A stretch of 64,000 nucleotides of DNA from Bdellovibrionota bacterium (GTDB taxonomy: Bacteria; Bdellovibrionota_C; UBA2361; JAAYZI01): positions 384,001 to 448,000 of the forward strand of contig JBMNIF010000003.1 of NCBI GenBank assembly GCA_050950765.1. The letters are read 5' to 3'. Positions 13,077-39,078 of the stretch are shown one piece after another. How positions within the stretch are numbered: the stretch's first letter is position 1; each line of letters begins with the position of its first letter. The notes below the pieces were generated by a model that saw nothing but the letters and a program-made list of their open reading frames with translations, had not been told where the DNA came from and searched no databases. A program made the position numbers and the translations under genes.

Positions 13077-13968
13077 CCAATTAGGACACCCAAACTTCAA
13101 AATCACAATAATCTAATAATATCAAGATGTTAACAAAAGCTTAGAAATTGGCAGATCTGGTGCCACCCTTCAGTAGGACAGCTTGTCACTGGTGCCACCC
13201 ACCAGTGCTAAAAGCCTTTAAAATTACGATAGCTAATAATATCAATCCATCTAGTGACAACTGAACGGGCTGCAACTGCAAAACGAATCAGCTAGGTCTC
13301 GACGGAGGTTAAAAATCTGGTGCCACCCTTCAGCAAAAGGTGGGTGTCCTAATTGAAAAAGCCGCTAGAGCGGATCAGCTAGATCTCGACGGCGGCTTTG
13401 GTTTTAGTGCCACCCTTCAATAAGACGAGTTCTGTTGGATTTGGGCGGCTTTGAATCTGGTGCCACCCTTCAGCAAAAGGTGGGTGTCCTAATTAAAAAG
13501 TCAGTGACGCTTGAACGGGCTGCAACTAAAAATCAAATCAGCTAGGTCTGGACGGAGGTTAAAAATTTGGTGCCACCCTTCAGTAGGGCAGGCTGTCGCT
13601 GGTGCCACCCACCAGCGTCGCAGACGCTTTGCAAATAGGACACCCAAACTTCAAAATTATAACATCTAATAATATCAAGATGTTAGCAAAAGTTTAGGAT
13701 TCGGCAGATCTGGTGCCACCCTTCTTTGTTGCAGTTTGTCACTGGTGCCACCCACCAGTAAGAGCGGATTCCCTTCAAAGACAACTGGACGGGCTGTAAC
13801 TTGCAGAACAGATCAGCTAGATCTCGACGGGGGTTAAAAGTGGGTGTCCTAATTGAGGGGTGCTAGGCACTGGTGCCACCCACCAAGATGCTCCCCACTT
13901 CTTAGGGGCGCTTGAACGGGCTGCAACTGAAGACAGAACTAGCTAGATCTTCACGGAGGTAAAAGGTT
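13077..13968 (+). repeat. Mosaic REP/BIME-like repeat field 1a
   Basis: About 10 GGTGCCACCC cores, GGGTGTCCTAATT/AGGACACCC motifs and IHF-consensus modules shared with the other fields. Confidence 0.9.
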
Positions 13969-14125
13969 GCCCATAAAAACAAATTGCTCTAATATTAACA
14001 GGTGGTTACAAGTTCGGCTTTAATCTGGCTTAATCGCTTGTTATAGCGGTATAAGCTCTCACTTTCCGAACAACTTTCACTAAGTACATAAAGAAATAAT
14101 CAAAGAAGGTGTTAGTTAATAAGAT

Positions 14126-14401
14126 ATGCGTCAAATAATTATCTTAACTCTATTATTTAATTACATATCTTCCCCAATAGCTTGGGGAGCTACACCTGAA
14201 GCATCTAAAAAATCACCTACCGAGCACTCCTCTAAAACAGATGCAAAGGTTGACCCTTCAATACTGCAAGAGCTAGAAGAACTTATTAAAAAATCCCCGC
14301 AATCTTCAGAAGCTCATTTTAATGTCGGTGTTGCTCAATATCGTTTATCGAAATATCAGGAGGCACTGGTGCCACCCACCAAGATGCTCCCCACTTCTTA
14401 G
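14126..14401 (+). pseudogene. Truncated 5' copy of the batC-like gene fused to repeat DNA
   Basis: First 79 aa match 15025.. with one substitution; then reads into GGCACTGGTGCCACCC and stops. Confidence 0.9.
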
Positions 14402-14868
14402 GGGCGGTTGGACGGGCTCAAACAGAAGAGCGGCTTTGGTTTTGGTACCACCCTTCAATAAGACGGGATCTACTAAATTTTGGCGGCTTTGAATTTGGTG
14501 CCACCCACCAGCGTCGCAGACGCTTTACAAATAGGACACCCAAACTTCAAAATTATAACATCTAATAATATCAAGATGTTAGCAAAAGTTTAGGATTCGG
14601 CAGATCTGGTGCCACCCTTCTTTGTTGCAGTTTGTCACTGGTGCCACCCACCAGTAAGAAGAGCGGATTCCCTTCAAAGACAACTGGACGGGCTGTAACT
14701 TGCAGAACAGATCAGCTAGATCTCGACGGGGGTTAAAAGTGGGTGTCCTAATTGAGGGGTGCTAGGCACTGGTGCCACCCACCAAGATGCTCCCCACTTC
14801 TTAGGGGCGGTTGGACGGGCTGCAACTAAAAATCAGATCAGCTAGGTCTGGACGGAGGTAAAAGGTTG
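14362..14868 (+). repeat. Mosaic repeat field 1b
   Basis: About 6 cores, IHF module at 14569-14581, same modules as field 1a. Confidence 0.9.
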
Positions 14869-15024
14869 CCCATAAAAACAAATTGCTCTAATATTAACAG
14901 GTGGTTACAAGTTCGGCTTTAATCTGGCTTAATCGCTTGTTATAGCGGTATAAGCTCTCACTTTCCGAACAACTTTCACTAAGTACATAAAGAAATAATC
15001 AAAGAAGGTGTTAGTTAATAAGAT

Positions 15025-16089
15025 ATGCGTCAAATAATTATCTTAACTCTATTATTTAATTACATATCTTCCCCAATAGCTTGGGGAGCTACACCTGAAG
15101 CATCTAAAAAATCACCTACCGAGCACTCCTCTAAAACAGATGCAAAGGTTGACCCTTCAATACTGCAAGAGTTGGAAGAACTTACTAAAAAATCCCCGCA
15201 ATCTTCAGAAGCTCATTTTAATGTCGGTGTTGCTCAATATCGTTTATCGAAATATCAGGAAGCTGTTAAATCTTTTGAAAAGGCAGCCCTCTTAAGTAAA
15301 GATGAGCACCTTACAGCTGAATGCCTCTATAATCTTGGGAACTCCTTTTACAAATCGGCTGAAGAAAGTTTGCAAACAGATCCGCAAGAAGCTTTAAAAC
15401 TTCTATCCCAAAGTGCAACATCATTCTCCGAATCCTTAAGGAGAGATCCAAGTAATCCCCTCTCCGGAAAGAATCTTGAGTTTACAAGAAAAACCATCCA
15501 GCGCCTTAAAACTGCTATGGAAAAGAAAAAACAGGAACAGCAAAAACAAGATCAAGCAAAAAAAGATCTGGAACAATTAAAGCGAGATCAGGAGAGCTTA
15601 AATAAGCAAACTAAAGAAACTGCCGCACAAGAAAAAGAGGATCCTTCAAATCAATCCAATCAGAACAATGAAGAAACTACCAAGCAAGCTAAAAAGCAAC
15701 AGGAGTTAAAACAGAAAGGATCAGAATTAAGAGATAAACTTTCAAATGAAAAGGCTGCCTCCGATCTGGAAGATGCCGTTAAAAATATGTCAGAAGCACA
15801 AAAAAATTTAACTCAAGGCAACCCACACCAAGCTGCTAAAAACCAAGAACAAGCTCTTAAAAATATCAACGAAGCGTTGAAAAAATTCTCGGAAGAAAAA
15901 CAGCAACAGAAAAAAGATCACGATAAAAACACTTCAAAAGATCCTGCTTCTCAGCAAAAGCAAGAGACCACACCACACCAAACGAACGACGAAGCTCAAA
16001 AGATTTTACAACAAGAACAGGAAAATCGTAACAGATATAACAGCGCCACTACTTCCGGTGGAATCGCATCTGTTGATAAGGATTGGTAA
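15025..16089 (+). CDS. batC: BatC-like TPR protein with Gln/Lys-rich tail
   Basis: TPRs AHFNVG and LYNLGNSFY, Q/K/E-rich region, terminal DKDW; upstream of batD. Confidence 0.75.
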   Translation: MRQIIILTLLFNYISSPIAWGATPEASKKSPTEHSSKTDAKVDPSILQELEELTKKSPQSSEAHFNVGVAQYRLSKYQEAVKSFEKAALLSKDEHLTAECLYNLGNSFYKSAEESLQTDPQEALKLLSQSATSFSESLRRDPSNPLSGKNLEFTRKTIQRLKTAMEKKKQEQQKQDQAKKDLEQLKRDQESLNKQTKETAAQEKEDPSNQSNQNNEETTKQAKKQQELKQKGSELRDKLSNEKAASDLEDAVKNMSEAQKNLTQGNPHQAAKNQEQALKNINEALKKFSEEKQQQKKDHDKNTSKDPASQQKQETTPHQTNDEAQKILQQEQENRNRYNSATTSGGIASVDKDW

Positions 16090-17927
16090 TGAATAATCAT
16101 CGTTATATATATTTTTTTCTCAGCTGTTTTTTACTATTCATGACTTTAATCGGCGATGCCGTAGCGGAGAATATTACAGCTTATGTACAGGTAGAGAATC
16201 AAGAAGTCTATTTGGGGGATTCTTTCGGATTACAGATCGTTGTTATCGGCGAAACGAAACCGGATGCTCCAGATCTTGAAGAGCTTGATAACTTTAAAGT
16301 TGAAACTCTCGGCGTAAGCAACTCAAGTAGCAGTAGCATCAGCATCATAAATGGCAGAAGACAAGAAAGCACTCAATACCAATATGTTTTCAATTACAGA
16401 TTGACACCAAAGACAACAGGAACTTTTACAATCCCATCCTTTACACTATCAGCTGCAGGGGAAAGTACCACAACAAAACCTCTAAAAATCAATGTAGTCA
16501 CTCCGAAAGGAGACCCTGATTATAAGTTGCGTCTTACACTTTCAAAAGACACCGCCTATGTCGGAGAAGCGCTCACTCTAAACATCACTTGGTATCTAGC
16601 AAGTGATGCCAGCAATTTTAATTTTTCATTACCTATTTTAGATGATCCCCGTTTTGCAGTACACCATCCAGAAGTTACTCCGCACAGTGGCAATGAATAT
16701 ATCCGTTTCCCGTTAGCAGGGCGTGATATCTTTGCGAAAAAAAGTTCCGCCGAGCTTGAAGGAAAATTCTATACTACCATCTCCTTTCAACAAATTATTA
16801 TTCCTAAACAGAGTGGCGAGATAGAATTGCCTAAAGGTGTCGTAACTGGGAAAAAGATTACAGGTTATAGCCGCCAAAATAGACGAACAGGTCTAATTAT
16901 CGGCGACCCTTTCTTTGATGATTTTTTTAATGCAAGGGAACCTATCTATCAACGTTTTGCCATACCCTCTAATCAACCTAAATTAACAGTTAAAGAGGTG
17001 CCGAGCACAGGGAAGCCTTACGACTTTACAGGTCTGATCGGCGATTATTCAATCATAGCTAACGCCACCCCCACCGATGTTAATGTAGGAGATCCTATAA
17101 CACTTACAATCGAAATTGCTGGTCCTAACTATATGGGGAACGTCTCAATTTACCCCTTAGAGAAACGTCAGGAATTAACAGGTGATTTTAAAGTCCCCGT
17201 AGAGATGGCAGCCCCTAAGATAAAACAGGGTATCGCAACATTTACGCAAACGATTAGACCCCTACGTCCTGATGTTAAACAGATTCCACCACTTAGATTA
17301 TCGTATTTTGATAGTAGTAAAGGAAAATACCTCACAACTTCTAGTGACCCGATCCCGTTAAAAGTAACATCAGCTAGAATTGTAACTGCACAAGACGCAG
17401 AGGGCACCACTTCTCCCATCCTTCAAACAACTACCTTAAAAACTTCAGCAGATGGAATTGTATATAATTACACTGACACCGCAAAGTTATTAGCAAAAGA
17501 AGTTGGCGCTACGCCCATTCAAAATAGCCCCTTCTGGATGTTTTTACTTATCGTTCCTTGCGGTCTGTATCTGATAATACTTGGAGTTCTCTCCTACAAA
17601 AGATTGAGTATGGCGGGGAGTAATAACGATGTTCGTAGTAACATTGCAGAGATCAAGAAACTTTGTCATGACAAAGCAGCACCGCAACAGATCCTTTCCG
17701 CATTCCGTAATTATCTCTCAAAAAAACTACTCCTCTCTGCAGGTTCCACAACATTTAAAGATATCGAACCTATCTTACAACAAAAAGGTATCTCATCGAC
17801 TCTCTTGGAAGAGATAAATACTTTCTTACAAGCACTTGAGGCGGCAAGTTATGCCGGAGCAGATGATGATACCGTACGTCCTCAAATGTTAAAAATCCTC
17901 AACAAGATGGAGAAAGAAATAAAATGA
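16089..17927 (+). CDS. batD: BatD family protein
   Basis: SSSISIINGR, YVGE, DPFFDDFF, FTGLIGDY, VGDPITLTI, C-terminal TM; TAATG coupling to batC. Confidence 0.9.
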   Translation: MNNHRYIYFFLSCFLLFMTLIGDAVAENITAYVQVENQEVYLGDSFGLQIVVIGETKPDAPDLEELDNFKVETLGVSNSSSSSISIINGRRQESTQYQYVFNYRLTPKTTGTFTIPSFTLSAAGESTTTKPLKINVVTPKGDPDYKLRLTLSKDTAYVGEALTLNITWYLASDASNFNFSLPILDDPRFAVHHPEVTPHSGNEYIRFPLAGRDIFAKKSSAELEGKFYTTISFQQIIIPKQSGEIELPKGVVTGKKITGYSRQNRRTGLIIGDPFFDDFFNAREPIYQRFAIPSNQPKLTVKEVPSTGKPYDFTGLIGDYSIIANATPTDVNVGDPITLTIEIAGPNYMGNVSIYPLEKRQELTGDFKVPVEMAAPKIKQGIATFTQTIRPLRPDVKQIPPLRLSYFDSSKGKYLTTSSDPIPLKVTSARIVTAQDAEGTTSPILQTTTLKTSADGIVYNYTDTAKLLAKEVGATPIQNSPFWMFLLIVPCGLYLIILGVLSYKRLSMAGSNNDVRSNIAEIKKLCHDKAAPQQILSAFRNYLSKKLLLSAGSTTFKDIEPILQQKGISSTLLEEINTFLQALEAASYAGADDDTVRPQMLKILNKMEKEIK

Positions 17928-18736
17928 AGCATCTGTTTTTAACCGTAAGTATTTACATTACTGTCCTACTCTCGGCTTTCGTTACTCCGCTTTATGGTGA
18001 AGGCTTATCAACTTTACAAACCAAAGATATTTTAAAAGAAGCCAACGCTTTTTTTAAAGAAGGAAGCGACTTACCCCCTTCCGACAGAGCAAAGAGAGAT
18101 GAACTCTACCGTAAAGCTCTGTTACGTTATGAACAACTAATAAACGAAGCCGGAATAAAAAATGGAGCTATCTATTACAATACTGCAAATATCTATTTCC
18201 TGTTAGGCGACTTAGGACGTGCCATCTTAAACTATCGTCGCGCTGAACTCTTCGCACCAACAGACGATAATATCTTAAAAAATCTGGAGTATGTACGTAA
18301 TCGCAAAATTGATAAGATAAACACGACTAATTCAAAGTCACCTCTAAAAACGATCTTTTTTTGGCACTATTTATTAAGTAAAACCACAAAAGTTAAAATA
18401 GCTATCGTATTTTTCGCTCTGTTTTGGATCTTTTTAACAGTTAGACTTTTGAAGTTGCGATCTTGTTCCCGTATATTTCCAACTTTGTGCGCTCTGATTA
18501 CTATACTTTTTTTAACATCAGCCTTTATTTATGAAGAATCAAAAGCTGCTGTAATTATAGCTCCCGAAACAATAGCTCGTAAAGGTGACGGATTAAATTA
18601 TGAACCTGCTTTTAAAGATCCTCTACACGCCGGAACTGAAGTAGTAATAAAAGAAGATCGTGATAACTGGTTACGCGTAGAATTACCCGACGGCAGCTCT
18701 TGTTGGTTACTTGCTAACGATCTAGAAGTGATCTGA
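17924..18736 (+). CDS. batE: BatE-like TPR plus SH3 protein
   Basis: YYNTAN..GRAILNYRRA, TM segments, LHAGTEV..WLRVELPDG. Confidence 0.85.
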   Translation: MKHLFLTVSIYITVLLSAFVTPLYGEGLSTLQTKDILKEANAFFKEGSDLPPSDRAKRDELYRKALLRYEQLINEAGIKNGAIYYNTANIYFLLGDLGRAILNYRRAELFAPTDDNILKNLEYVRNRKIDKINTTNSKSPLKTIFFWHYLLSKTTKVKIAIVFFALFWIFLTVRLLKLRSCSRIFPTLCALITILFLTSAFIYEESKAAVIIAPETIARKGDGLNYEPAFKDPLHAGTEVVIKEDRDNWLRVELPDGSSCWLLANDLEVI

Positions 18737-18820
18737 CACGACCCTTTTATAAAAATATCAATACACCCTAACGAAATAAACGATCAACGCTCCACGACCT
18801 TAACGTGATTATGCCTTAAT

Positions 18821-18852
18821 CAAAACTTTTCCCCTTTACGTATATTAGGTAA
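18821..18852. mobile_element. Orphan IS end resembling the right end of the 9325-10889 IS
   Basis: CAAAACTTTTCCCCTTTACGTATATTAGGTAA vs reverse complement of the 10889 end CCCAAACTTTCCCCTTTTTACGTATGTTAAGTAA. Confidence 0.6.
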
Positions 18853-19243: not shown

Positions 19244-21001
19244 ACAAGAGAACCTTTAAGTAGTTTGGTGCTATGAGTTAAAAAATTCTTAAACCGTTAA
19301 TGGATTATTTTTCCTAAATTCCCGTTTTTTTTATAGTCTACACCTTAGTATTTAATATTTTATCGATAAAAATCTTCTGGTCAATTTCTAATGCTTCTAA
19401 AATATCTTTTTGTTTTTTTGTTAATGGCTGTAGTAGCATGCTCAGATTTTCATTATCTATGCGTCTTATCATTTTAAGCGTTTCTAAAACTCTCTGAATG
19501 GTTTTTTTCTACTTTTTTGTTATTATTATTTATAGTTCTTTGTAGGTCTGACCACATAATTAAGCTAAGAAAGGAGACGAAGCTTTTGCCGTCAGTAGTT
19601 TTTTCATTATGTGTTAGCATACGGTCATTATCCAATTCATTTTTTAAATTATCGAAAGCTTTCTCAATAAAGTCTCGTCGTGAATAGATATGAAGTGCTT
19701 CTTGTGGTGTCATTGTTGAGTGGTTACTCAAAAAAGCAAAAACTCCTAGCATAGATAAGATATCGGTAATTTTTTCATGATCTCTTTCAAAACTTTCTAA
19801 CTGCACTTCTTTCTTAGTTTTTATTTTGTAGTATTTAGAGTAGCGACTCATACTCATAGGCTTTTTCATTTCTTTTAGTTCATCTTCTAATCTGTCAATA
19901 TGAGAGTAAAGAGTGCTCTCTTCCTCAGATGCACTTTTTGTATTTAAGTAAACGTAGAGAGAAAATTTTTCTCCATTTATCTCAATATCTTTTCTTACCC
20001 CATAACAATTTGTCCCAGATATGTGATTCCTAGAAGAGCGAAGAGTAACAGATGCTTCCCTCATAGTATCGTTATAATTTTTCTGAGATTTAGGAACAGC
20101 TACGAGAAATTCTATTTGCTCTTTTTTTATATATTCTAAATTTTCTTTTGTAATAAAACCTCTATCCAGAACATAAAATATATCATCAATACCTAAGCTT
20201 TTAGAGTATTCCATCATTGTTGTAAGAAAAACTTTATCAACAACACTTCCACTGTAAAGAAAAAAACTTATTGGTAAATTGCTGTCGGTAGCGTATAAAA
20301 GTCCGACATTTAGTTGTGGTAAATATTCTTTGTCTCTATTGTATCCATTCTCGGCAAGTGGCAAGTCTGCATAAGTAGAAAGGCTCGTAACATCATAAGC
20401 TACAGTCTCATTGTTTTTCATAGCATGGTTTTTCCACACAGAAAAAAACTTCATTTGATCTTGTTTGGTAATCGATGAAAAAAGCTCACTTGTCTTTTGC
20501 GAAGATAGAGATATGTTTTTAGGGGTAAGAGTATTTTGCAAAAAATTATCTATATTCATCATTACATTGCCTTCGCAAGCCATGTATAACGCAGTATAAA
20601 AGATATCTTCGTATTTATCGGGAAAGATTGTTTTTAAGCATTTTAATAACCCTATAGCCTCAGCTCTCATTTTTAATGCGACTACGTGACCTGCGTCCCA
20701 AACAAAGCGAGAAGAAGCTAGATCAATAACGTCAGATGGCATTGGATAATATTTTCTAAAGTTCTCATTAGGAATCATTCTTCCTTGTCTATCAGGGTCT
20801 ATCTTTCCCACAATCACTTCATCACAAGTAGGTGTGCCGTTCTTATTACGACGATGACCAAGTACGTGATACACATACTTTACGTTTCCTTTGCTATCTT
20901 TTTTATACGAAATCTGTGCTGGTTCAGCGTGAAATGGACATTTGAGGTGCTGAAAAAAGCTACTATAATAGCCTGAGTGATATTAACTAATGGGGTGAAT
21001 A

Positions 21002-21307
21002 ATGGGAAAACATTTTAGTGCAGAAGATAAGGTTAAGATACTGAAGGAGCATTTATTAGGAAATAAGCCGTTATCGAGTTTATGCGATAAATACGGCGTA
21101 CACATTAGTACATTTTATGAATGGCAGAAGCTATTATTTGAGGGAGCTATCCAAATTTTTGAGCGGAATAAAAATGGTAGGAAAGAAGAAAAGAAGCAAG
21201 CTGAACGGATAGATATTTTGGAGAAGAAGCTAACGAAGAAGGATTCTGCGCTAGCGGAGCTTTTGGGGCTTCATATAGATTTAAAAAAAAAGCTTGGGGA
21301 GCTTTAA
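21002..21307 (+). CDS. IS3 OrfA (HTH)
   Basis: FSAEDKVKIL..LCDKYGVHISTFYEW; ends in an A9G slippery run. Confidence 0.9.
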   Translation: MGKHFSAEDKVKILKEHLLGNKPLSSLCDKYGVHISTFYEWQKLLFEGAIQIFERNKNGRKEEKKQAERIDILEKKLTKKDSALAELLGLHIDLKKKLGEL

Positions 21308-21342
21308 CGAAGCGTTGGGTTGAGCCACAAATACGAGATGAG

Positions 21343-22305
21343 GTGATAGATTTTGTACATGAATGGCAAGAGAAATCAGAAATGAAGCGGGAGATGTTTA
21401 TAAAGAGGTTAGGGATAACACGGAGCAAGTACTATGCTTGGGAAAAACATTACGGTAAAGAGAACTTTCATAACGGGCTAATTCCGAGAGATTACTGGCT
21501 ATTACCCAGTGAAAGGGAGGCTATTATTAAGTATTATTTAGAGCACTCAAGAGTAGGTTATCGAGCATTAACATACATGATGCTTGACGCAGATGTTGTG
21601 GCAGTATCCCCTGCGACGACCTATAGAGTATTGAAAAGTGCTGGCTTAATGCGTTGCTGGAATGGTTTAAAAAGCAAGAAAGGGACAGGATTTGAACAAC
21701 CACTTAACCCGCATGAACATTGGCATACGGATGTTTCATATATCAATATTTGTGGCACATTTTACTATTTTATTGGAGTTTTGGATGGATGTAGTCGGTA
21801 TTTAGTTGCATGGGACATTAGAGAATCGATGAAAGAAATAGATATTGAAGTAGTATTACAAAAGGCTAGAGAAAGTTTTCCAGACGCAAGACCGCGAATT
21901 ATTTCAGATAACGGTTCAGCCTATATTTCAAAAGAGTTTAAGAATTTTATAAAGATATCTGGTATGACTCACGTCAAGACATCACCGTTCTATCCACAAT
22001 CGAACGGTAAGATGGAGAGATTTAATGGGACATTAAAAGTAGAAGCGATACGACCTAACACTCCAGTATCACTTGATGATGCGAAAACTATAGTGAGTAA
22101 GTTTGTCGAAGAATATAACAATCAGCGGTTACATTGTGCGCTAGGTTATATAACACCAAATGATAGATTGAATAACAAGCAAGAGGAGATATTTAGAGCT
22201 CGAGACAGCAAATTGGAAGCTGCTAGAGCACATCGCAAGTTAGTAAGAGAGGGGTACCCCTCTCTTACTAACTACAACATTGAACAACAAGCTCAGGTGT
22301 GTTAA
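21343..22305 (+). CDS. IS3 OrfB (rve integrase core), fused to OrfA by -1 frameshift
   Basis: WHTDVSY, ISDNGS, PQSNGKMER, YNNQRLHCALGY; lies in the -1 frame relative to OrfA. Confidence 0.93.
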   Translation: MIDFVHEWQEKSEMKREMFIKRLGITRSKYYAWEKHYGKENFHNGLIPRDYWLLPSEREAIIKYYLEHSRVGYRALTYMMLDADVVAVSPATTYRVLKSAGLMRCWNGLKSKKGTGFEQPLNPHEHWHTDVSYINICGTFYYFIGVLDGCSRYLVAWDIRESMKEIDIEVVLQKARESFPDARPRIISDNGSAYISKEFKNFIKISGMTHVKTSPFYPQSNGKMERFNGTLKVEAIRPNTPVSLDDAKTIVSKFVEEYNNQRLHCALGYITPNDRLNNKQEEIFRARDSKLEAARAHRKLVREGYPSLTNYNIEQQAQVC

Positions 22306-22837: not shown

Positions 22838-24622
22838 TTATGCACCCCCTGTTAAGCGTGCCCTGATTGCAAACTGTTTAGCCAGTTCAGATTCTCCTTT
22901 TGCTTCATAGACTGCACTTAATATCTGCAATCCATTTACATACTCCGGAGTATTCTCCTTGCCGTCAGTCGATGCCAAGATATAACCGAGAGCATAAAGA
23001 GTTAATTTTTCAGCGCGATCCTCAAAGCCATTCTCAAGAAAAGCCTGCACGCGCGCTTGCCAATTATCTATTCGCAAAAATCCTTTCCTATCTGCAAAAT
23101 CTTCTTCCGTTAAGACTGAAACTTCTTCAGCATCTTCTTCAACCGTCTCTTCCGCAGTAGAAGTTGAGGTAGAGAATGAATCTTCGTCTTCAACTTCTTC
23201 ATGTATTTCATTAGGATCTAATCCCACAGGAGCACCATCAATAGCGGCGACAGAGGTCATAAGAATTTCTTCTGCCGTTAACTCTTTTTCTTCAGGTTCT
23301 TTTTTATCCGTTGATACTGCTTCTTCCTCTACGGGGATCTCCACTTTCGGCACCTCAAAGGGGGCCTTATCATTTAAGAATTGAAGAGCATAAGATCTGC
23401 ACGCCGTAAAAACTGGAGAGATATAAACTGATCCATCAAAGGCTCGTACAATATCTACAATAAAAGGCAGTAGCGTTCCTCCAAACTTAGTATCGAGATT
23501 ATCCATATCTTCTAAAAACATCTCCTGTCTTTTTTTAGCATCGCCGCGGTCACCGCTCTGCACCATCGCCAGATCTCGATCGTAATCTCCTACGTATTTA
23601 TCTGTATAAAGCCTAGAAAATGTTTCCTTACAATTTTGAACCTCTTTTTCAGCAACTTCTCCCTGCTTTTCCAACAAAGAAATTGATCTTTTATAAATCC
23701 ACATCGCTATTTCTGGTTCCAACAATTTATTAACCCAGCTAGCTGCCGTTCTAAAAGAATCAATTGCTCTACTTATATCTTTTTGGTCTTCACAATATTG
23801 AGCAAAGAAGCAGAGGCTATCGATAGTTTCGTCGGCATCCATACCATACAACCCTTGCACTAACTCCACGCCCCATTCCATATTGATTAAAGATTGTCTG
23901 GCGTCATTCTTATCTCGATAAATCGCCGTTAACACATTGATGCAAGCGATAAATAACGGAGAGATCTCCATATTAAAATGTTCGCGCATCGCCAAGACTG
24001 ATTGTAAAACTTTTTCGGCATCTTCTGCTTTATTACTCAAAAAATAAGCGAACCCGACCTTTGCTTGCACATAAGCAAGTTGTGTATAGTCTCCCATCGT
24101 CATATTGTCGGTGTTAATCTCTTGTGCAGCTTCAATATAATAATCGATAGCTTCGTCATATTTTTCTTGCGAAAAAGAAATTTCAGCGAAGCACAACGAC
24201 AATCCAATTTTAAATATCTTTACGATATCAGAGCTTCCGGAGATATTTTTTCTGACTTTACTATAATGCAAACAAGCCTCATCTATCCGTCCCCCCTGCA
24301 ACGCCACAAGAGCCATTGCGCACGTTGTCCCGTAAGAAAGGATCTGTAAAAGATCCTCGTCCAGCACCATATCGGTGTACTGTTTTGCTGTTTTAACATG
24401 TGCCGTCGCTTCTTGAGTGTTCCCCCCCAGCAACTCTGCCAACCCAAGAAGTGATGTGACAGGTGCCATATATTCAGGCATTTTAGCAAACTTACCGCTG
24501 CACAATTCTTTTAATTCATTCAGCTGTACCAGTGCAGTAGAGACATCCCGTCTAGAGACTGCTTCTAAAGCGTTACTATATTGATCGAGCCACGTCAGAT
24601 CGTTTCCGGTAAGATTGCTCAT
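22838..24622 (-). CDS. TPR-like helical repeat protein with acidic low-complexity region
   Basis: Repeated patterns such as YDEAIDYY and AEDAEKVLQSVL; E/D-rich segment near the C-terminus. Confidence 0.75.
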   Translation of the reverse strand: MSNLTGNDLTWLDQYSNALEAVSRRDVSTALVQLNELKELCSGKFAKMPEYMAPVTSLLGLAELLGGNTQEATAHVKTAKQYTDMVLDEDLLQILSYGTTCAMALVALQGGRIDEACLHYSKVRKNISGSSDIVKIFKIGLSLCFAEISFSQEKYDEAIDYYIEAAQEINTDNMTMGDYTQLAYVQAKVGFAYFLSNKAEDAEKVLQSVLAMREHFNMEISPLFIACINVLTAIYRDKNDARQSLINMEWGVELVQGLYGMDADETIDSLCFFAQYCEDQKDISRAIDSFRTAASWVNKLLEPEIAMWIYKRSISLLEKQGEVAEKEVQNCKETFSRLYTDKYVGDYDRDLAMVQSGDRGDAKKRQEMFLEDMDNLDTKFGGTLLPFIVDIVRAFDGSVYISPVFTACRSYALQFLNDKAPFEVPKVEIPVEEEAVSTDKKEPEEKELTAEEILMTSVAAIDGAPVGLDPNEIHEEVEDEDSFSTSTSTAEETVEEDAEEVSVLTEEDFADRKGFLRIDNWQARVQAFLENGFEDRAEKLTLYALGYILASTDGKENTPEYVNGLQILSAVYEAKGESELAKQFAIRARLTGGA

Positions 24623-24726: not shown

Positions 24727-26135
24727 GTGGTGCCACCCTTCAGGGACAGCTGGGCAGGCTGATACGGCAAAACAGATCGGTTAGGTTTCTACGGAGGTTA
24801 AAAGTGGGTGTCCTAATTGGGGGCTAGATCTCGACGGAGGTTAAAAATTTGGCAGCAAGACGGGTGACGAATTTGGTGCCACCCTTCTTTGTTGCAGGCT
24901 GTCGCTGGTGCCACCCTTCAGCGCCGCAGACGCTTTGCAAATAGGACACCCAAACTTCAAAATCACAACATCTAATAATATCAAGATGTTAGCAAAAGTT
25001 TAAAATTCGACAGATCTGGTGCCACCCTTCAGTGACGCTTGAACGGAGGTTAAAAGTGGGTGTCCTAATTGGGCAGATCTGGTGCCACCCAACAAGATGC
25101 TCCCTCCACTTCTCAGGGGCGCTTGAACGGGCTGAAACTGTAGAACAGATCAGCTGGATCTTCACAGGGGTGAAAAGTGGGTGTCCTAATTGGCAGTGTC
25201 GACGGAGGTTAAAAATTTGGCAGCAAGACGGGTGACGAATTTGGTGCCACCCTTCTTTGTTGCAGGCTGTCGCTGGTGCCACCCACCAGCGCCGCAGACG
25301 CTTTGCAAATAGGACACCCAAACTTCAAAATCACAACATCTAATAATATCAAGATGTTAGCAAAAGTTTAAAATTCGACAGATCTGGTGCCACCCACCAA
25401 TAAGACGCGATCTGCTAGATTTGGACGGCTTTGGTTTCCACCCACCAATAAGACGGGATCTGCTAGATTTGGACGGCTTTGGTTTTGGCGCCACCCTTCA
25501 AGGACAACTGACCACCCACCAGTGCAGTTAAAAATTTGGTGCCACCCACCAGTGCAGAATCTTGGTTTAAAAGGATGAAGTCTTTAAAATCAATATGTTA
25601 GCACCTAACTAAAGATGGTTAGTTTTGGTGCCACCCAACAGCAAGACGGGATCTGTTGGATTTGGGTGGCTTTGGATCTGGTGCCACCCTTCAAGGACAA
25701 CTGAACGGGCTGCAACTAAAAATCAGATCAGCTAGATCTTCACGGAGGTTAAAAAGTGGGTGTCCTAATTAGCAGTGACGGCTGAATGGGCTGATGCTAA
25801 AAATCGAAGTAGCTAGATCTGGACGGAGGTTAAAAATTTGGAAAATTTGGTGCCACCCACCAGTGCAGAATCTTGGTTTAAAAGGATGAAGTCTTTAAAA
25901 TCAATATGTTAGCACCTAACTAAAGATGGTTAGCTTTGGTGCCACCCACCAGTAAGACGGGATCTGTTGGATTTGGGCGGCTTTGGATCTGGTGCCACCC
26001 AACAGCAAGACGGGATCTGTTGGATTTGGACGGCTTTGGTTTTGGTGCCACCCTTCAAGGACAACTGAATGGGCTGATACTAAAAATCGAAGCAGCTAGT
26101 TCTCGACGGAGGTAAAAAGTGCCACCCAGCAGTGC
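24727..26135 (+). repeat. Mosaic repeat field 2
   Basis: About 15 exact cores plus variants; internal duplications 24831-25027/25199-25395 and about 25531-25637/25842-25948. Confidence 0.92.
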
Positions 26136-26216: not shown

Positions 26217-27254
26217 TTATGCAGCGGCGTTCTCACTTAAAGCTTTTCGTAGCGTTTGTCCGAGAGAAAAAAGCTGGCTAGGGTTTTTAGGTTTACCATC
26301 CACCCGTACTTCGTAGTGCAGGTGTGGACCTGTTGAACGTCCTGAAGATCCAGAAAGCGCGATAATATCACGAGCTGTTACTTTATCGCCTCTTTTAACA
26401 AGCATCTTTGAAAGGTGAGCGTAACGGGTCATAACTCTATCAGTATGCTTAATATCAATGTAATAACCGTACGTGTTGCTGTATTTTACATTAGAGACAA
26501 CACCATCAGCAGTAGCATAAACAGCAGAGCCAACCTTTAATGAAAAATCAACTCCTTGATGTACACGCCACCTCTTACTAAACGGTGAGAACCTAGCACC
26601 AAAAAGAGATGTCACCTTACCATTTGAAGGATAATTGAATGGGATTGCCCGAATAGCAGCGATATATTGATCCAAAAACTCTGCGGTTTTTACACTCTTT
26701 GAAGTTACAGGTAATTTTAGAAGAGCATCTTTACTGTCAGCATCCCAATTTTCCGAAGCAACTATTTTAACACAACTCTTTTTGCCACTCTTTTTACTGG
26801 CGCTAACACAATCTATCTCTAAGCCACCAACTCCCCCTTTGGTAACCTTATCAGAGAGACCAAGAGCATTTAAATCTTTATCCTGAATAACACCTAGATT
26901 TTTAGCCGAATACAGCACTTCATTTAACTTTTTCAAGCGCTGCTCTACCTCTTTCTTATACTCTTCAGCTTGTACGTTTTTATTTTTTAATCCACGAACC
27001 TTCTGTTGCAAGTTCTTATTGGTACGGTGCAAGGTATCCCGTTCAGATTTTAACTTGAGCATTGAAAAGTAATTACCGCCTTGACGGAAACGCAATCTAG
27101 CGTAGTCGCTCACCACGTAGAGACCAGCCAAAGCCACAACAACCACTAATAGCGCTAATCCAAGCACTTTTAAGAAACAAACTCTAAGTTTTCTAACCTT
27201 TCCACATTTAGTTGAAACCAACCAAATGCAGAAATCATTATCAAGACGTCCCAT
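26217..27254 (-). CDS. M23 peptidase with N-terminal TM and coiled coil
   Basis: HQGVD, YAHLS, STGPHLHYE. Confidence 0.9.
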   Translation of the reverse strand: MGRLDNDFCIWLVSTKCGKVRKLRVCFLKVLGLALLVVVVALAGLYVVSDYARLRFRQGGNYFSMLKLKSERDTLHRTNKNLQQKVRGLKNKNVQAEEYKKEVEQRLKKLNEVLYSAKNLGVIQDKDLNALGLSDKVTKGGVGGLEIDCVSASKKSGKKSCVKIVASENWDADSKDALLKLPVTSKSVKTAEFLDQYIAAIRAIPFNYPSNGKVTSLFGARFSPFSKRWRVHQGVDFSLKVGSAVYATADGVVSNVKYSNTYGYYIDIKHTDRVMTRYAHLSKMLVKRGDKVTARDIIALSGSSGRSTGPHLHYEVRVDGKPKNPSQLFSLGQTLRKALSENAAA

Positions 27255-30182: not shown

Positions 30183-30194
30183 TATTATTGCAGC

Positions 30195-32742: not shown

Positions 32743-33651
32743 CTAACAAGAACTCGGCGAAAGTAAAGATCTCTTATAAGCGTCAAAAGTATTCGCCATC
32801 AGCATGGCAACGGTCATCGGACCTACTCCACCAGGTACGGGCGTAATAGCACGACACAACTCTTTAACTCCTTCAAAATCAACATCCCCAACTAATTTAC
32901 CATCAGAGAGTCTGTTGATACCAACATCTATCACAATAGATCCTTTAGAAACCCACTCCTTAGTAACCATCTGCGGCACCCCCACTGCCGCTACAATTAT
33001 ATCAGCCTCACGACAGATCTTAGCACCCTCTTTTGTTCGTGAATGCACCACCGTTACTGTGGCGTTTCGCTCCAACAGAAGCATTGAAACAGGTTTTCCA
33101 ACTAAGATCGATCTTCCGATCACAACCGCTTTTAAACCACTTAGATCAGCAGCAGGAGCATCTTCTTCACAACCATCATCTTGATAAGCGAGATCGAGTA
33201 ATTTCATAATCCCGAGCGGAGTGCACGGTCTAATCCCCGCTAGCCCCCGCATCAAAAGCCCTTGATTAACGGGATGTAATCCATCGACATCTTTTTCAGG
33301 AGAGATTAAGTTAAGTAACGACGTGCTATCCAGATGCTTCGGGAGTGGAAGCTGCATCAAGATACCATCCACTTCCGGATTATTATTAAACTGAGAGATG
33401 GCTGCTGCCACCTCTTCTTGCGTAGCATCTTCTGCTAAAATAGCATTAAATGTTTTAAAACCGCATTTTTTAGTGGCTGTTTTTTCTTTATTTGCAACGT
33501 AAGTTTTTGAAGCAGGATTTTCACCAACTAAGACAACAGCCAAACCTGGTTGCCGCTTTCCTTGCTGCACGTAGTGATCAACTTCAGTATGTAGTTTTTT
33601 ATGAATACGGCTGGCTAGCGCCTTACCATCTAAAATTTTGCATAAACTCAT
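32743..33651 (-). CDS. folD: Methylenetetrahydrofolate dehydrogenase/cyclohydrolase
   Basis: QLPLP, KDVDG, PCTP, GRSILVGKP, PVPGGVGPMT. Confidence 0.97.
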   Translation of the reverse strand: MSLCKILDGKALASRIHKKLHTEVDHYVQQGKRQPGLAVVLVGENPASKTYVANKEKTATKKCGFKTFNAILAEDATQEEVAAAISQFNNNPEVDGILMQLPLPKHLDSTSLLNLISPEKDVDGLHPVNQGLLMRGLAGIRPCTPLGIMKLLDLAYQDDGCEEDAPAADLSGLKAVVIGRSILVGKPVSMLLLERNATVTVVHSRTKEGAKICREADIIVAAVGVPQMVTKEWVSKGSIVIDVGINRLSDGKLVGDVDFEGVKELCRAITPVPGGVGPMTVAMLMANTFDAYKRSLLSPSSC

Positions 33652-33901
33652 AATAAAGTTTCCTCCTAAGTTTTACCGATCTCAACTTACCTGCACCTCA
33701 TTAATAAAAAGAGAAGAAGATAATCGACTACTCCTTTTTTTGCAAAGAGAAGAGGTGCTATCTTACTTAAAGATTAATTATTTTACAGCTATCTCAAGCT
33801 CAAGCCCCCACTTTGTAGGTATTTCTCTTTTCTTCTTAATTAGTTAGAGTAGTAAATATTGTAAAACAGATTACTTTTAAACCATCTTGGATACATTAGC
33901 T

Positions 33902-36900
33902 ATGTTTATAAAAAAAATATTTTTCTCCCTATCTCTAATATTTTCATTTTTATACATTTCCAGTGCATTAGCCCTTACTGACGAGATCCCACAACTAGAT
34001 AAAGCAGCAGTCCTACGCTCTGCTGCTGAAATTACCACAGAAAATTATCCTGATGCTGATGACGTTCTGATTGATGACTACACTAGGGTTAAGTACAACG
34101 CTGATGGCACATCCCTTGAACTTTGCGACAGCTACCAGAAAATTCTTACTGAAAAAGGCAAGCGTGACAACAGTGAGATAACTATGCACTTTACAATTCC
34201 ATACGATAAAGTTGCGGTGTTACTCCTTGAAATAATCAAGCCTGATGGCACAACCATTCCCGTAGACATAGCAGCTCAAAGTAAAGAGATGATTAGCTCA
34301 GGACAGATGAACTCAAACATCTATAATCCTAATGACAAAGAGCTAAGAGTCGGAATTCCAAACTTACAGATTAACGATATTGTTCACACCATCACACGTT
34401 CTGAAACCGTCAAACCCATTGTCCCAAATACTTGGAGCGATATAGTAATCTTTGAATACACCTCCCCTATTAAACACCATACTTATGAAGTTATTGCACC
34501 ACACGAACGTCCGCTAAAAAAGATCGCCCTGCGAGATGAAGTAAAAGGGAGTGTCAAAGCTTCAAAAACACAATTAAAAGACGGCATCTCCTACAAGTGG
34601 GAAGTTTTTAACGTTCCGCAGATATTTCCAGAACCTAACATGCCTGCGCTATTCTCCGTTGTTCAACGTCTTATCGTCAGCACAATAGAAGATTGGGAAG
34701 AGATCTCAAAGTGGTACTGGAATATCAGCGAACCGCATCTTGCTGCTACTACTCCAGAGATGCGTCAAAAGGTAGATGAGATCACTAAAGGCATTAATGA
34801 TCCGAGAGAAAAACTTGAAGCGATCTTTCGTTGGGTCTCTCAAGAGATCCGTTACATGGGAATCACCATTGAAGATGATGCACCAGGCTTTGAACCTCAC
34901 GATGTTAAGCTCACCTTTGAACAACGTCACGGAGTGTGTAGAGATAAAGCAGCTTTATTAGTAGCAATGCTACGCATGGCAGGTTTGGATGCTTACCCCG
35001 TGATTATCTATGTGGGTCCTAAACGTGATCCAGAAGTACCGATGGCACGTTTTAATCACGCCGTAGTTGCTGCTGAACTACCACTCCCAAACTCTAAAGA
35101 AAAAGAAACGATCCTAATGGATCCCACAAATGAAAGCACAAAAGACCTTTTCCCAGCGTATCTAAATGATCGCAGCTACATAATTGCGAAAAGCGCAGGA
35201 GAAACTTTACGCGTTTCGCCTATTACACCGGCAGAAGAAAATGCTGTATCCATTACAACAAAAGCAGCTATTGATGATAACGGACTCTTAAATGCAACAA
35301 CTACCATCGCCTTCAACGGCATTAACGATTCTGCTTATAGAGGATTCTTAGCACGCACCACTTCTGATGAAAGGAAGCGTTTCTTTGAAGCTTTAATAGG
35401 AGCAGTTGCTCCGGAAGCTACCCTCACATCTGTTGAGTTAACACCAAAAAATTTACTAGACACAACGCTCCCCCTCTCTGCTAAGTTAGCATTTAAAACA
35501 GACGATAATATGTTGATACAAGAAAACGGCGTCACCATGTTCGTCCCTCCGTATTTTGGAACTCGTCTCGGTCTAGTTAATTTCGCACTTGGCAAAACAG
35601 GATTGGAGAAACGAAGATACCCTCTCAATATTGATTTTGCTTGTGGAGTTGAAGAAGAGATCGATATCGAACTTGCACCGTCTTTAGGCGCAATAAAAGC
35701 GCTACCTGATGTTACAACCATAAGTAACGATGGAGTTTCTTGGAACGGACAAGCTCTCAAAACAGAAAGCGGCTTAAATATTAAAAGGCAGTTTTACTTA
35801 AAAGTAGTGGAGTTTACTCCGCAACAATATCAGACACTAAAAAACGACCTTAAGGTAATTGAATATGACAAGAGGAAACGTCCGATACTTGAGCAAGGAG
35901 ACGGATCCGACAGAAACGCCGATCTTATTTTACTCGATCGTACAGTTAAGTTTTTTCTAAATGACAGCCACACTTGGAGAGAGGAGCATTACTACAAGAA
36001 GAAGATCTTAACCTATAACGGTAAAAAGGATGCTGCTGAAGTAAAGATAACTTACAACTCAGCTCTGGAAGATGTTAAAGTATTAGAAGCGAAAGTAACA
36101 AATGGCACAGTAACTAAAGAGATCTCTCCTAATGAAATAAATCTTATGGATGCTGCATGGGTAGCTTCTGCGCCACGTTATCCTGCTACAAAAACGTTAG
36201 TTTTAAGTTTACCGAGTGTGGAGATCGGTAGTATCGTTGAATACAAGATCGCTATCGAGAAGAAAGATAGCCCCTTTTTCTCAACACTTCAGATCTTTAG
36301 AGATTTTAACCCACTAAAACGTAAGACCGTTACTATTGATGCACCTAAGGATCTAGCACTCACAATTAAAACAGACGATAACGGTACAGCAATACCGGAT
36401 AACACCGATCATTCGATATTCGATATTACCGACACGACGAAAGGAGATCGCCGCATCCGTACTTGGACGGTTTCAGATCAAAAGCCGCTAACAAAAGAGG
36501 ATAACTTACCGCCTGCCTTTGCCATGACAGCTATGCTGCACGTCACTTCAGGAGATTGGCAGATCTTTTCAAAAAGCATCTATGATAAATTAAAAGAAGC
36601 TGCTGAAAAGCAACCGCAAACAGCTCTCTTAGCTCAACAGATCACGGGAAAAGCTGCAAACAGAGATGAGAAGATAATTGCCATCAGAGATTTTGTTGCA
36701 AAAAATATCCGTCGTGTTGGCCCCACTATCAATATGCTTCCACTAAGCGCCATCACCGCCTCTGATCAAACTATAAAAGACGGATATGGTAATAACAGTG
36801 ACCGAGCTGTTGTGCAGTATGCTCTTTTAAAAGAAGCAGGTTTAAACCCTGAGTATTTATTAGTTGATTCGAGTAGATTAGCGCCTGAATTACTAGAGTT

Positions 36901-37729
36901 CAGAAAGAACGCCTCAGACCTTGATACATTTGATCTGGTACTGGTAAAAGTTCAAGGAGATTCTGAAGAGATAATTCTTAATGACACCAATCAATACGCT
37001 CATCTCGGGACAACCCCTTCCGAGGGACGCTTATCATTAACAGAGAGAGCCGATCTGGAGCTACTCTCAATTCCGCAAAATCTACAAAACTGTGTACACG
37101 TTAATTACGACTTAACCATTGAAAAAGATGGCACTGCCCTTTTAACTTGGACAAAAGAGAGTTTCGGCACTGCCTATGCTTCTGGGAAAAAGTTTTTTTC
37201 AGAGATGACTCCGGAGGAGAGGACACGTTATCAGCAGGAGCAGGTGGCAGCAATTTCACAAAGTGCTATTTTAACAAAAAGTTTAGCGGCAAACTTTAAT
37301 GTTTATCCGAGTAGAGAGACTTTCAGTGTAAAGGTACCTCACTTTGCCGTACAGACCGGAGATTATCTATATTTTAATCTGCCGCGCACCGTTCAAAGGT
37401 TATTTAACGTCCATCAAAAGACACGGGAAAATCCTTTGGCATTTTCTTCCATTACACGTTTAAAGATCGATACAACAGTTACTCTTCCCAAAGAGTTCTC
37501 AAACATAGCTCTTCTGCCGCAACCACAAGAGTGGCACCTTCCGAATGATAGCGGAAAAATTATTTTAAAGGTTGATCTTTCAAAAGCCGACGCTCAAAAG
37601 AAGATACGATTCTCTCAGAGAGTAGACCTAAAACCACTACTACTTGAAGCAGCGGATTATCACCGTGTCTTTGATATCGATAAGACTCTGGCACTACCAG
37701 CAAGTAGAATCGTTTTATTAAAAAAATAA
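33902..37729 (+). CDS. Exported protein with two DUF3857 plus transglutaminase-like modules
   Basis: Signal peptide; module 1 GVCRDKA/FNHAV/MDPT; module 2 GNNSDRA; ATG at 33902. Confidence 0.85.
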   Translation: MFIKKIFFSLSLIFSFLYISSALALTDEIPQLDKAAVLRSAAEITTENYPDADDVLIDDYTRVKYNADGTSLELCDSYQKILTEKGKRDNSEITMHFTIPYDKVAVLLLEIIKPDGTTIPVDIAAQSKEMISSGQMNSNIYNPNDKELRVGIPNLQINDIVHTITRSETVKPIVPNTWSDIVIFEYTSPIKHHTYEVIAPHERPLKKIALRDEVKGSVKASKTQLKDGISYKWEVFNVPQIFPEPNMPALFSVVQRLIVSTIEDWEEISKWYWNISEPHLAATTPEMRQKVDEITKGINDPREKLEAIFRWVSQEIRYMGITIEDDAPGFEPHDVKLTFEQRHGVCRDKAALLVAMLRMAGLDAYPVIIYVGPKRDPEVPMARFNHAVVAAELPLPNSKEKETILMDPTNESTKDLFPAYLNDRSYIIAKSAGETLRVSPITPAEENAVSITTKAAIDDNGLLNATTTIAFNGINDSAYRGFLARTTSDERKRFFEALIGAVAPEATLTSVELTPKNLLDTTLPLSAKLAFKTDDNMLIQENGVTMFVPPYFGTRLGLVNFALGKTGLEKRRYPLNIDFACGVEEEIDIELAPSLGAIKALPDVTTISNDGVSWNGQALKTESGLNIKRQFYLKVVEFTPQQYQTLKNDLKVIEYDKRKRPILEQGDGSDRNADLILLDRTVKFFLNDSHTWREEHYYKKKILTYNGKKDAAEVKITYNSALEDVKVLEAKVTNGTVTKEISPNEINLMDAAWVASAPRYPATKTLVLSLPSVEIGSIVEYKIAIEKKDSPFFSTLQIFRDFNPLKRKTVTIDAPKDLALTIKTDDNGTAIPDNTDHSIFDITDTTKGDRRIRTWTVSDQKPLTKEDNLPPAFAMTAMLHVTSGDWQIFSKSIYDKLKEAAEKQPQTALLAQQITGKAANRDEKIIAIRDFVAKNIRRVGPTINMLPLSAITASDQTIKDGYGNNSDRAVVQYALLKEAGLNPEYLLVDSSRLAPELLEFRKNASDLDTFDLVLVKVQGDSEEIILNDTNQYAHLGTTPSEGRLSLTERADLELLSIPQNLQNCVHVNYDLTIEKDGTALLTWTKESFGTAYASGKKFFSEMTPEERTRYQQEQVAAISQSAILTKSLAANFNVYPSRETFSVKVPHFAVQTGDYLYFNLPRTVQRLFNVHQKTRENPLAFSSITRLKIDTTVTLPKEFSNIALLPQPQEWHLPNDSGKIILKVDLSKADAQKKIRFSQRVDLKPLLLEAADYHRVFDIDKTLALPASRIVLLKK

Positions 37730-37737
37730 GCCGGTCT

Positions 37738-39078
37738 GAATTTGACCACCCTTCAGAGACGGCAGGACGGGCTGCAACTTGCAGAGCGAATCGGTTAGAT
37801 CTCTACGAAGGTTAAAAATTTGGTGCCACCCACCAGTGCTAAAAGCCTTTAAAATTACAATAGTTAATAATATCAATATATTAGCAAAAGCTTAAAATCT
37901 GGCAGTTTTGGTGCCACCCTTCTTTTTTGCCGCTTTGACGGCTTGGGCGACTGGATAAATTTGGTGCCACCCACCACTTTAAAGAGATCTGGCTGGGCTT
38001 GGAACTGGTGCCACCCTTCAGGGACGCCCTACAGGACGCTTGAACGGGCTGCAACTTGCAGAGCAAAGTCGGCTAGATCTTATGGGGGTTAAAAATTTGG
38101 TGCCACCCACCAGTGCTAAAAGCCTTTAAAATTACAATAGTTAATAATATCAATATATTAGCAAAAGCTTAAAATCTGGCAGTTTTGGTGCCACCCACCA
38201 CTTTAAAGATGCTTAGTTTTGGTGCCACCCACCAGTAACAGCACCACCCTTCTATGGGGGTAAAAATTTGGTGCCACCCACCAGTGCTAAAAGCCTTTAA
38301 AATTACAACAGTTAATAATATCAATATATTAGCAAAAGCTTAAAATCTGGCAGTTTTGGTGCCACCCTTCTTTTTTGCCGCTTTGACGGCTTGGGAGGTC
38401 AAAATTTGGTGCCACCCACCAGTAAAAGTGGGTGTCCTAATTGGCGGCTAATAATATCAGTATGTTAGCAAAAGTTAGAATTTGAACTGCAAATCGAATC
38501 GGCTAGATCTGGACGGGGGTTAAAAAACTGGTGCCACCCACCAGTTAAAAGTGGGTGTCCTAATTGGCGGCTAATAATATCAGGATGTTAGTAAAAGCTT
38601 AGGTCTTGGCAGTTTTGGCAGCATTTTGGTGCCACCCTTCAAGGACAACCGAACGGGCTGCAACTGCGGGGCGAAGTCGGCTAGTCTACGGAGGTTAAAA
38701 ATTTGGTGCCACCCACCAGTGCAGAATCTTGGAGGTTAAAAATTTGGTGCCACCCACCAGTGCAGAATCTTGGCTTAAAAGGATGAAGTCTTTAAAATCA
38801 ATATGTTAGCACCTAACTAAAGATGCTTAGTTTTGGTGCCACCCTTCTATGACAATTGAACGGGGTGATACTGCAAAACGAACTGGCTAGATTTCTACGG
38901 AGGTAAAAGGTGGGTGTCCTAATTGGAAGCTAAGGACGATCGAGCGAGCTGATACTAAAAAACGAGTTAGCTAGATCTAGACGGAGGTCAAAAAATTTGG
39001 TGCCACCCTTTAGGGACGACTGAACGGGCTGATACTGCAAAGCGGGATCAGCTAGGTCTCTACGGAGGTCAAAAATTT
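37738..39078 (+). repeat. Mosaic repeat field 3 between convergent genes
   Basis: About 16 exact cores; three copies of an 88-bp IHF module (37822, 38099, 38270); modules shared with fields 1 and 2. Confidence 0.92.

Follow-up and report, generated by a model that had tools for sequence, protein, structure and literature searches.

Shuffled intergenic arrays in a Bdellovibrionota genome are joined at an 11-bp motif that also forms the ends of a Y1 transposase element

We analyzed a stretch of 64,000 nucleotides from a Bdellovibrionota bacterium (GenBank assembly GCA_050950765.1, contig JBMNIF010000003.1, positions 384,001 to 448,000 of the forward strand; referred to as the window here), in which an initial annotation had described noncoding mosaic fields built on a recurrent 10-mer. 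This motif, exact GGTGCCACCC, is called the core or core A below, and its full 11-bp terminal form is TGGTGCCACCC. The source genome (G000) comprises 2.64 Mb in 5 contigs and is 94% complete. Where about 45 co-oriented cores had been reported, we counted exactly 45 in the window, all on the + strand and in four runs (shuffle mean, 0.01; 0 of 100 shuffles reached 45). The runs and the fields that contain them, described relative to the neighboring open reading frames (ORFs), are as follows.

13159-13881 (9 cores), 14368-14780 (5), 24729-26053 (15), and 37822-39008 (16), + strand: the four core runs
13077..13967, + strand: field 1, 9 cores in one orientation and their modules, starting 79 bp past the stop of ORF 11094-12998; boundaries at C3+ 397076 and 397967
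14361..14863, + strand: field 2, 5 cores, mostly the second copy of a 769-bp duplication (see below), its 3' end set by analogy with field 1
24727..26130, + strand: field 3, 15 exact cores and additional degenerate cores, flanked by ORFs 22838-24622 (-) and 26217-27254 (-)
37746..39079, + strand: field 4, 16 exact cores, between the convergent ORFs 33887-37729 (+) and 39085-41730 (-)

The cores had been described as confined to intergenic fields. This holds for all four runs, the sole exception being a weak antisense ORF of 110 amino acids at 24989-25321. The DNA that separates field 1 from field 2 is not intergenic, being a truncated duplicate of the TPR gene that follows. Field 4 has its 5' edge within a core (CCACCC) and its 3' edge 1 nt into a core. 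About 110 bp past this field, at 39187-39196, lies a one-mismatch core, CGTGCCACCC, in the 3' end of ORF 39085-41730 (881 amino acids, without a Pfam match). A search of Rfam across 12900-39200 gave 0 matches.

To describe the DNA between cores, we divided it into core-to-core modules, which yielded 792 modules in 262 families at a clustering threshold of 28% edit distance. The spacers between cores measure 11 to 400 bp and are reused. Within the window, a family with a 111-bp period (13601, 14497, 24907, and 25275) and an 89-bp family (25538, 25849, and 38746) recur in distant fields, as the initial annotation had claimed. Its notion of a small module library applies in part: the top 25 families hold 421 of the 792 modules, and the largest, with 112 copies, is found in 57 of 115 runs, but 159 modules are singletons. 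Head and tail of the same module share a mutual information of 0.659, compared with 0.194 after shuffling (0 of 1,000 shuffles reached the value), while the tail of a module and the head of the next one across the core share 0.246, compared with 0.242 (419 of 1,000). This shows that module type is linked within modules but independent across the core, which makes the core a point of free reassortment. Junctions had also been said to fall often at the core, and the 8-nt windows beside it indeed hold 45% of 5,761 right and 43% of 6,018 left breakpoints, versus 10% of positions, although part of this clustering is circular, the matches being seeded by the shared core. Folding of the two main modules does not surpass that of shuffled sequences (z +0.80 and +0.15); among seven modules folded, one reached z -3.10 and three z -1.5 to -1.8. 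A context table of the flanks of all cores in the genome shows WWYT before the core and TTCA or ACCA after it, without a GTAG foot.

The initial annotation had proposed a genome-wide count of the motif, and this count came to 967 copies in 141 clusters, making it the commonest 10-mer of G000. Only 18 of the cores lie inside ORFs of at least 100 amino acids and 949 outside, though such ORFs cover ∼80% of the DNA. Most clusters are single-strand, and the core footprint amounts to 65.8 to 73.7 kb (2.5 to 2.8% of the genome). Fields usually follow the end of a co-oriented gene, which places the core on its sense strand (73 of 97, versus 48% expected; p 6e-8), and those between co-directional genes have a strand bias of 35:13 (p 0.002), both figures being based on crude ORF calls. 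The junction pieces 25044-25228, 25366-25556, and 37965-38113, as well as the field edges, occur with 0 differences in contigs of three studies, so that the fields are not a product of misassembly. Summed contig depth over the fields is ∼4 to 27 times that of the flanks; none of the public contigs extends across an entire field, and the source sample may be among the runs. The public samples with these sequences are mostly anaerobic digesters and bioreactors. The field arrays are real, head-to-tail stacks of short noncoding pieces joined at the 11-letter motif.

Outside the window, the same motif bounds a multicopy element. Searching G000 with Pfam, we found six Y1_Tnp genes, each between inward-pointing cores, and in 6 of 6 copies of the element the core is its perfect 11-bp terminal inverted repeat (TIR), TGGTGCCACCC. 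The copies occupy six different loci and are 1,402 to 1,404 bp long and 97.8 to 99.2% identical, with 205 to 207 bp between core and ATG and 228 bp between stop codon and core. An enzyme encoded outside the window, possibly of the Y1 HUH type found in the tyrosine transposases that accompany repetitive extragenic palindromes (REPs), known as RAYTs, had been put forward as mobilizer of the fields, and the six genes make this likely. Field-type modules are stacked outside the left end of the element, and outside the right end there are head-to-tail stacks of truncated right-end copies (414, 249, 152, and 66 bp), all of which end at a core. At C1:385499, an element-like left end (86% over 88 bp) is followed by unrelated DNA without a transposase gene, which is probably a remnant. 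Among other recombinase types, the three tyrosine recombinase and three DDE genes checked were rejected as mobilizers, since their nearest core is 2.3 to 35 kb away; serine recombinases, reverse transcriptases, and IS110 were not found in the 94% complete genome.

The protein of the element, P0001, has 322 amino acids with the motifs NHFH (60-63) and YIYINP (121-126) and an SS motif; H61, H63, Y121, N125, and P126 are invariant among 28 aligned homologs, and the H-to-W distance is 40 amino acids. Its AlphaFold model (pLDDT 89.7) best matches Escherichia coli TnpA-REP (4ER8; E 2.6e-6), followed by the TnpA proteins of IS608 and ISDra2. P0001 scores above the Pfam Y1_Tnp cutoff and below both NCBIfam cutoffs (REP_Tyr_transpos, 67.4 bits versus 80; IS200, 18 versus 55). 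Its C-terminal half, a tail of ∼170 amino acids, matched no Pfam family, and a helix-turn-helix (HTH) family was absent from all 28 members when searched at E 0.1. Relatives form 541 clusters of 50% identity at E 1e-10, and homologs occur in 86 of the 91 genomes of the order, while a search of viral and genome contigs gave no related loci and tblastn against plasmids none. At the 28 homolog loci, raw counts without a shuffled control gave 13 with inverted repeats of 10 to 16 bp, 8 with repeats of only 8 to 9 bp, and 7 with none; most of the 10- to 16-bp repeats start with TGG but differ in sequence.

When counted as the 11-mer TGGTGCCACCC, the motif has 943 copies in G000, compared with 37, 16, 9, and at most 5 among 40 relatives, whose counts are lowered by the fragmentation of most of their assemblies. 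Direct core pairs occur in only 2 of the 91 genomes of the order (283 in G000 and 4 in G019), and G001, the only genome of the same family searched, has 2 cores. Of the genomes searched, only G000 shows the expansion. As a TIR around P0001 homologs, TGGTGCCACCC was seen at two loci of G025 and in G040, there with one mismatch in the right end. G019 (37 cores; 92% complete) yielded no Y1 gene, which is possibly unassembled or lost; its loci L064 to L072 are inverted core pairs around AT-rich spacers of 110 to 150 bp with flank stutters, resembling miniature inverted-repeat transposable elements (MITEs). Scans of sequence collections for direct core pairs returned at least 213 loci, of which L100 and the freshwater metagenome contigs L195, L208, and L216 carry shuffled, co-oriented core arrays with unrelated modules. 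The three freshwater contigs indicate that the array architecture is not unique to G000.

To locate the junctions at the core more precisely, we examined short duplications of the outer flank (referred to as stutters here). Stutters reaching at least 2 nt into the core are present at 42 of 967 cores, compared with 11 of 7,584 host TGG sites. Among 25 distinct perfect cases in G000, 23 allow the junction TGG/TGCCACCC, and of the 16 unambiguous ones 15 lie exactly there; at the G019, G025, and G040 loci, 7 of 7 fit the same junction (unambiguous, 5 of 5). Shifted controls gave 1 to 12 cases without a peak. The trinucleotide TGG stands 5' of the presumed cut in 871 of 944 cases. Since the unambiguous stutters have zero microhomology, cut-and-join fits them better than plain slippage, and TGG/TGCCACCC is probably the nick site of the enzyme, as predicted from these sequences. 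Together with the mutual information across the core, which is at the shuffled level, the stutters bear out the view of the core as a reassortment point. One example from the window is as follows.

25833..25858, + strand: stutter, a 9-bp perfect duplication of the outer flank ending in TGG, directly before core 25849 (C3+ 409848)

The fields also contain the ends of a second element. A profile search found a second Y1 gene in G000, a single copy outside the window at C1:418239-419288, whose 350-amino-acid product carries YVDLNP, SEFTS (TS motif), and an H-to-W distance of 93 amino acids (long insertion) and appears by motif to be of TnpA-Y1 subclass 2.3 type. The gene is flanked by GGACACCC/GGGTGTCC repeats, with the nearest core A 5.9 kb away. 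It supplies a second motif, AGGACACCC, which the initial annotation had not mentioned and which has 194 copies in G000, of which 161 are within 300 bp of core A, mostly in opposite orientation, and 16 are in the window fields (0.13 expected). Given this mixture, the fields are hybrids of two elements' ends, as in the following unit.

38407..38445, + strand: hybrid unit, core A followed by an inverted second motif, with a 7-bp stem (z -1.54)

The second motif has no stutter signature (4 of 194). On C1, 31 of its 103 copies are within ∼10 kb of the second Y1 gene, and arrays of this motif alone were seen at C1:412900-413600. Homologs of the second protein (E 1e-61 to 1e-70) are present at 7 of the 213 direct-core loci listed, all titled Planctomycetes (L086, L093, L101, L106, L119, L122, and L138), where TGGTGCCACCC forms inverted, tandemly repeated ends of subclass-2.3-type Y1 genes. 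In the loci viewed, the core is upstream of the gene in 6 of 6 and also inverted downstream in 5 of 6. Core A is thus used by two Y1 lineages.

Taken together, we consider it likely that the core is the TIR of an autonomous TIRtron-type element encoding P0001 and that the fields are nonautonomous by-products of this element. In such a scheme, P0001 would bind the core on single-stranded DNA and nick after TGG, leaving a 3'-OH on the TGG side and a 5'-phosphotyrosine on TGCCACCC. The cut ends would then be rejoined to partner ends from another core or from loosely chosen sites nearby. Exchange from core to core would excise, insert, and reorder units of core and spacer; exchange with a site 8 to 30 nt upstream would generate stutters; and exchange with a distant 3' end would capture DNA further downstream in variable lengths, for instance ends of the element or the TPR gene's 5' part. 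Local tandem copies would probably be added by slippage and recombination of the host. The arrays themselves are most likely selfish and tolerated at gene 3' ends. A more far-reaching reading makes P0001 a site-specific single-strand recombinase of an 11-nt, nonpalindromic, hairpin-free site nicked at TGG/TGCCACCC, driving an integron-like and still active shuffling of cassettes that occasionally captures host gene fragments and is interleaved with the sites of the second Y1 enzyme; this we put forward only tentatively and think rather doubtful.

The nick-and-rejoin model allows the duplication at fields 1 and 2, which begins at a core, crosses modules and intergenic DNA, reaches into the TPR gene (15025-16089, which we take to be BatC-like), and rejoins 6 to 7 nt before the next core.

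13600..14364, + strand: first copy of the tandem duplication, 769 bp, 98% identical to 14496-15263
14126..14361, + strand: truncated 5' copy of the TPR gene, ∼79 codons of the gene at 15025-16089, with host DNA stopping 6 to 7 nt before core 14368

There is no support for a general capture of host genes, as only 5 of 84 low-copy duplications in G000 touch a core. The genome is rich in tandem and near-tandem duplications of low-copy DNA although MutS is present. In the window, a tandem pair of DUF7657/DUF7654 genes (49795-51792 and 51905-53899; 94% identical over 2.1 kb) adjoins glycosyltransferase and Wzm/Wzt genes. At 9448-10863, 19474-20874, and 21002-22305, the window also holds two transposase genes of DDE_Tnp_1 type and one IS3-type (rve) element, none with cores at its ends.

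Several observations weigh against P0001 as the builder of the arrays. Field ends are spread around the core: 53 of 95 5' ends fall at -11 to +7, and 18 of 84 3' ends fall at -5 to +6, with 24 more at +14 to +25. A single cut position could be read neither from these ends nor from cores truncated on the right side. The stutter peak at +2 is absent from the 213 distant loci listed with the same core, and four stutters at other TIRs of the P0001 protein family end at +4/+5. Duplication is common in G000 generally, and for 79 of 84 low-copy duplications neither end comes within 30 bp of a core. A divergent strain was seen in run X8, and neither a sister strain with readable fields (0 hits of a 20-nt field motif in metagenome contigs) nor an empty site was found, the public contigs showed no new module order (24 of 24 tested joints match combinations in other G000 fields), and a replichore or lagging-strand bias of the fields was not seen (53:41, p 0.26). 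Moreover, in Planctomycetes this core is found at the flanks of another Y1 lineage, so that the second such gene in G000 might likewise act on it.

This last point leads to an explanation in which the second, subclass-2.3-type gene is the main builder, acting on both motifs, which end in CACCC. The core A flanking its homologs at the Planctomycetes loci and the 161 second-motif copies close to core A are in its favor, but in G000 the only repeats beside the gene are of GGACACCC type, with core A at least 5.9 kb off, and it stands as a single copy against six near-identical, core A-bounded P0001 elements, which makes this role improbable. Less easily dismissed, though still unlikely, is the idea that the transposase did no more than seed MITEs and solo ends, while host RecA recombination, gene conversion, and slippage over the 11 to 20 bp shared around cores built the arrays. 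Homology alone predicts breakpoints beside a shared core, and the local runs of near-identical modules, the identity of fields across the three studies, and the 79 tandem duplications not linked to a core are all consistent with host processes. These would hardly account for stutters that end at one bond without microhomology, for nontandem modules recurring genome-wide in up to 57 of 115 runs, or for direct pairs occurring, among 91 genomes of the order, only in G000 and G019; the presence of MutS also speaks against them.

That the fields were domesticated and serve the host at gene 3' ends (through mRNA stability, termination, or nucleoid protein binding) seems more improbable still. It is suggested by the 73 of 97 fields that follow a co-oriented gene end and by the 35:13 strand bias, but this bias is explained equally well if transcription leaves the nontemplate strand single-stranded or if disruption of promoters is selected against. 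In addition, the fields are absent from G001, module order is random, the main modules are unstructured, and Rfam gave no match. There is hardly any probability left for an assembly artefact or a decayed coding repeat: the genome is apparently metagenome-derived, and no public contig spans a field, but the exact matches of junctions and edges in three studies and the raised depth of the fields contradict an artefact, as do the 949 cores outside ORFs a coding origin.

The P0001 element can be placed among TIRtrons (or TIRYTs), described as Y1 genes flanked by TIRs, whose repeat families are moderately abundant and arranged as dimers or clusters, in 2013 (Di Nocera, De Gregorio, Rocco, PMC3733652), so that the term "unrecognized" in the initial annotation was too strong for the class. 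By anatomy, the G000 element is one of the TIRtrons: a gene for a RAYT-like tyrosine transposase, with an HUH motif and a catalytic Tyr, lies between TIRs, not REPs, and the TIR copies form a repeat family of the same genome (967 cores in 141 clusters). Its TIR is short (11 bp) and without the GGGGWSAS motif, which is not obligatory, being found in some TIRtron TIRs only, the others being unrelated. Compared with what the available part of that paper describes, G000 differs in having 967 copies over 2.5 to 2.8% of the genome, nearly all direct and with a shuffled spacer library, as well as six near-identical autonomous copies. The available part of PMC3733652, in which TIRYTs were named, gives no cut site, mechanism, or biochemistry, TIRYTs turned up in just two works in the literature searched, and how mosaics resembling bacterial interspersed mosaic elements (BIMEs) form is still explained at the level of models. 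In this respect G000 is an extreme natural record, with 967 sites in ∼2.5 to 2.8% of its DNA, an enzyme-site pair, and a prediction of the scissile bond at nucleotide level. If the P0001 reading is true, an HUH transposase can use a short, hairpin-free inverted-repeat end and can build shuffled direct arrays, which would bring IS200/IS605, TIRtrons, and REP/BIME into a single scheme and provide a compact enzyme for cutting and joining single-stranded DNA.

In the TnpA-Y1 classification, TIRYTs are subclass 2.1, and REP-like flanks were not found for subclasses 2.1 or 2.3, as far as the available text states (Quentin et al. 2018, PMC6006769). The class 2 signature given there (Y---NP, NHFH, and SS motif) is present in P0001, which differs from subclass 2.1, as described in that text, in its lack of a C-terminal HTH/Bac_DnaA_C tail and from subclass 2.3 in its lack of the ∼55-amino-acid insertion (H-to-W, 40 versus 93 amino acids) and in having YIYINP, not YVDLNP; the P0001 family may be an unclassified class 2 branch. 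The second G000 protein resembles subclass 2.3 as outlined there in its insertion, YVDLNP, and TS, with 350 amino acids versus a typical ∼325. Unlike what the same text reports for both subclasses, the two G000 Y1 proteins have specific flanking repeats, and so do the subclass-2.3-type genes at the Planctomycetes loci. Neither the motif, nor a mosaic array of this scale, nor the cut site was found in the literature searched (for the motif, among the matches listed, and excluding the supplements of PMC3733652 and PMC6006769, which could list the TIR), and later TIRYT work, HUH/TIR literature from 2018, and the Bdellovibrionota and Planctomycetes literature held nothing on such arrays among the matches listed.

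The fields had been likened to REPs and BIMEs, an identity that did not survive closer comparison: the cores have no GT[AG]G foot and no conserved stem-loop, the main modules are unstructured, and the cores are direct, not alternating (45 of 45 on one strand). Shared with REP/BIME/REPIN systems are the fold of P0001, like that of TnpA-REP 4ER8, the hundreds of intergenic copies at gene 3' ends, and the mosaic arrays. RAYTs are mostly single copy, and tandem REP arrays are unexplained in the available parts of the literature (PMC5581495, PMC3337134, PMC3116915), whereas the P0001 gene is multicopy (six) and insertion sequence-like, with a REP_Tyr_transpos score below the cutoff. TnpA-REP cuts at a variable distance from its site and performs strand transfer, and HUH ends are a 3'-OH and a 5'-phosphotyrosine, according to the portion of PMC8266576 at hand. 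The G000 element is RAYT/REP-like in its presumed chemistry. With IS200/IS605 elements (IS608 and ISDra2) it shares the Y1 HUH fold, and the short TGG 5' of the presumed cut recalls the IS608 target tetranucleotide; in contrast to these elements, its ends are inverted repeats instead of differing subterminal hairpins, its protein is twice as long, and no lagging-strand bias was seen. In integron cassette arrays, direct-oriented sites bound reorderable units, and in the one-ended transposition of IS91/ISCR elements a fixed and a variable end capture neighboring DNA. The G000 units differ in being noncoding and 20 to 170 bp long, with no integrase or attC nearby and with a Y1 enzyme, not a tyrosine recombinase or Y2. 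The spacers, uneven (11 to 400 bp) and reused, and the lack of an Rfam match set the fields apart from CRISPR arrays and from Rfam RNAs. Among these systems, that of G000 is unusual in its scale, its direct orientation, its free module shuffling, and its readable cut site.

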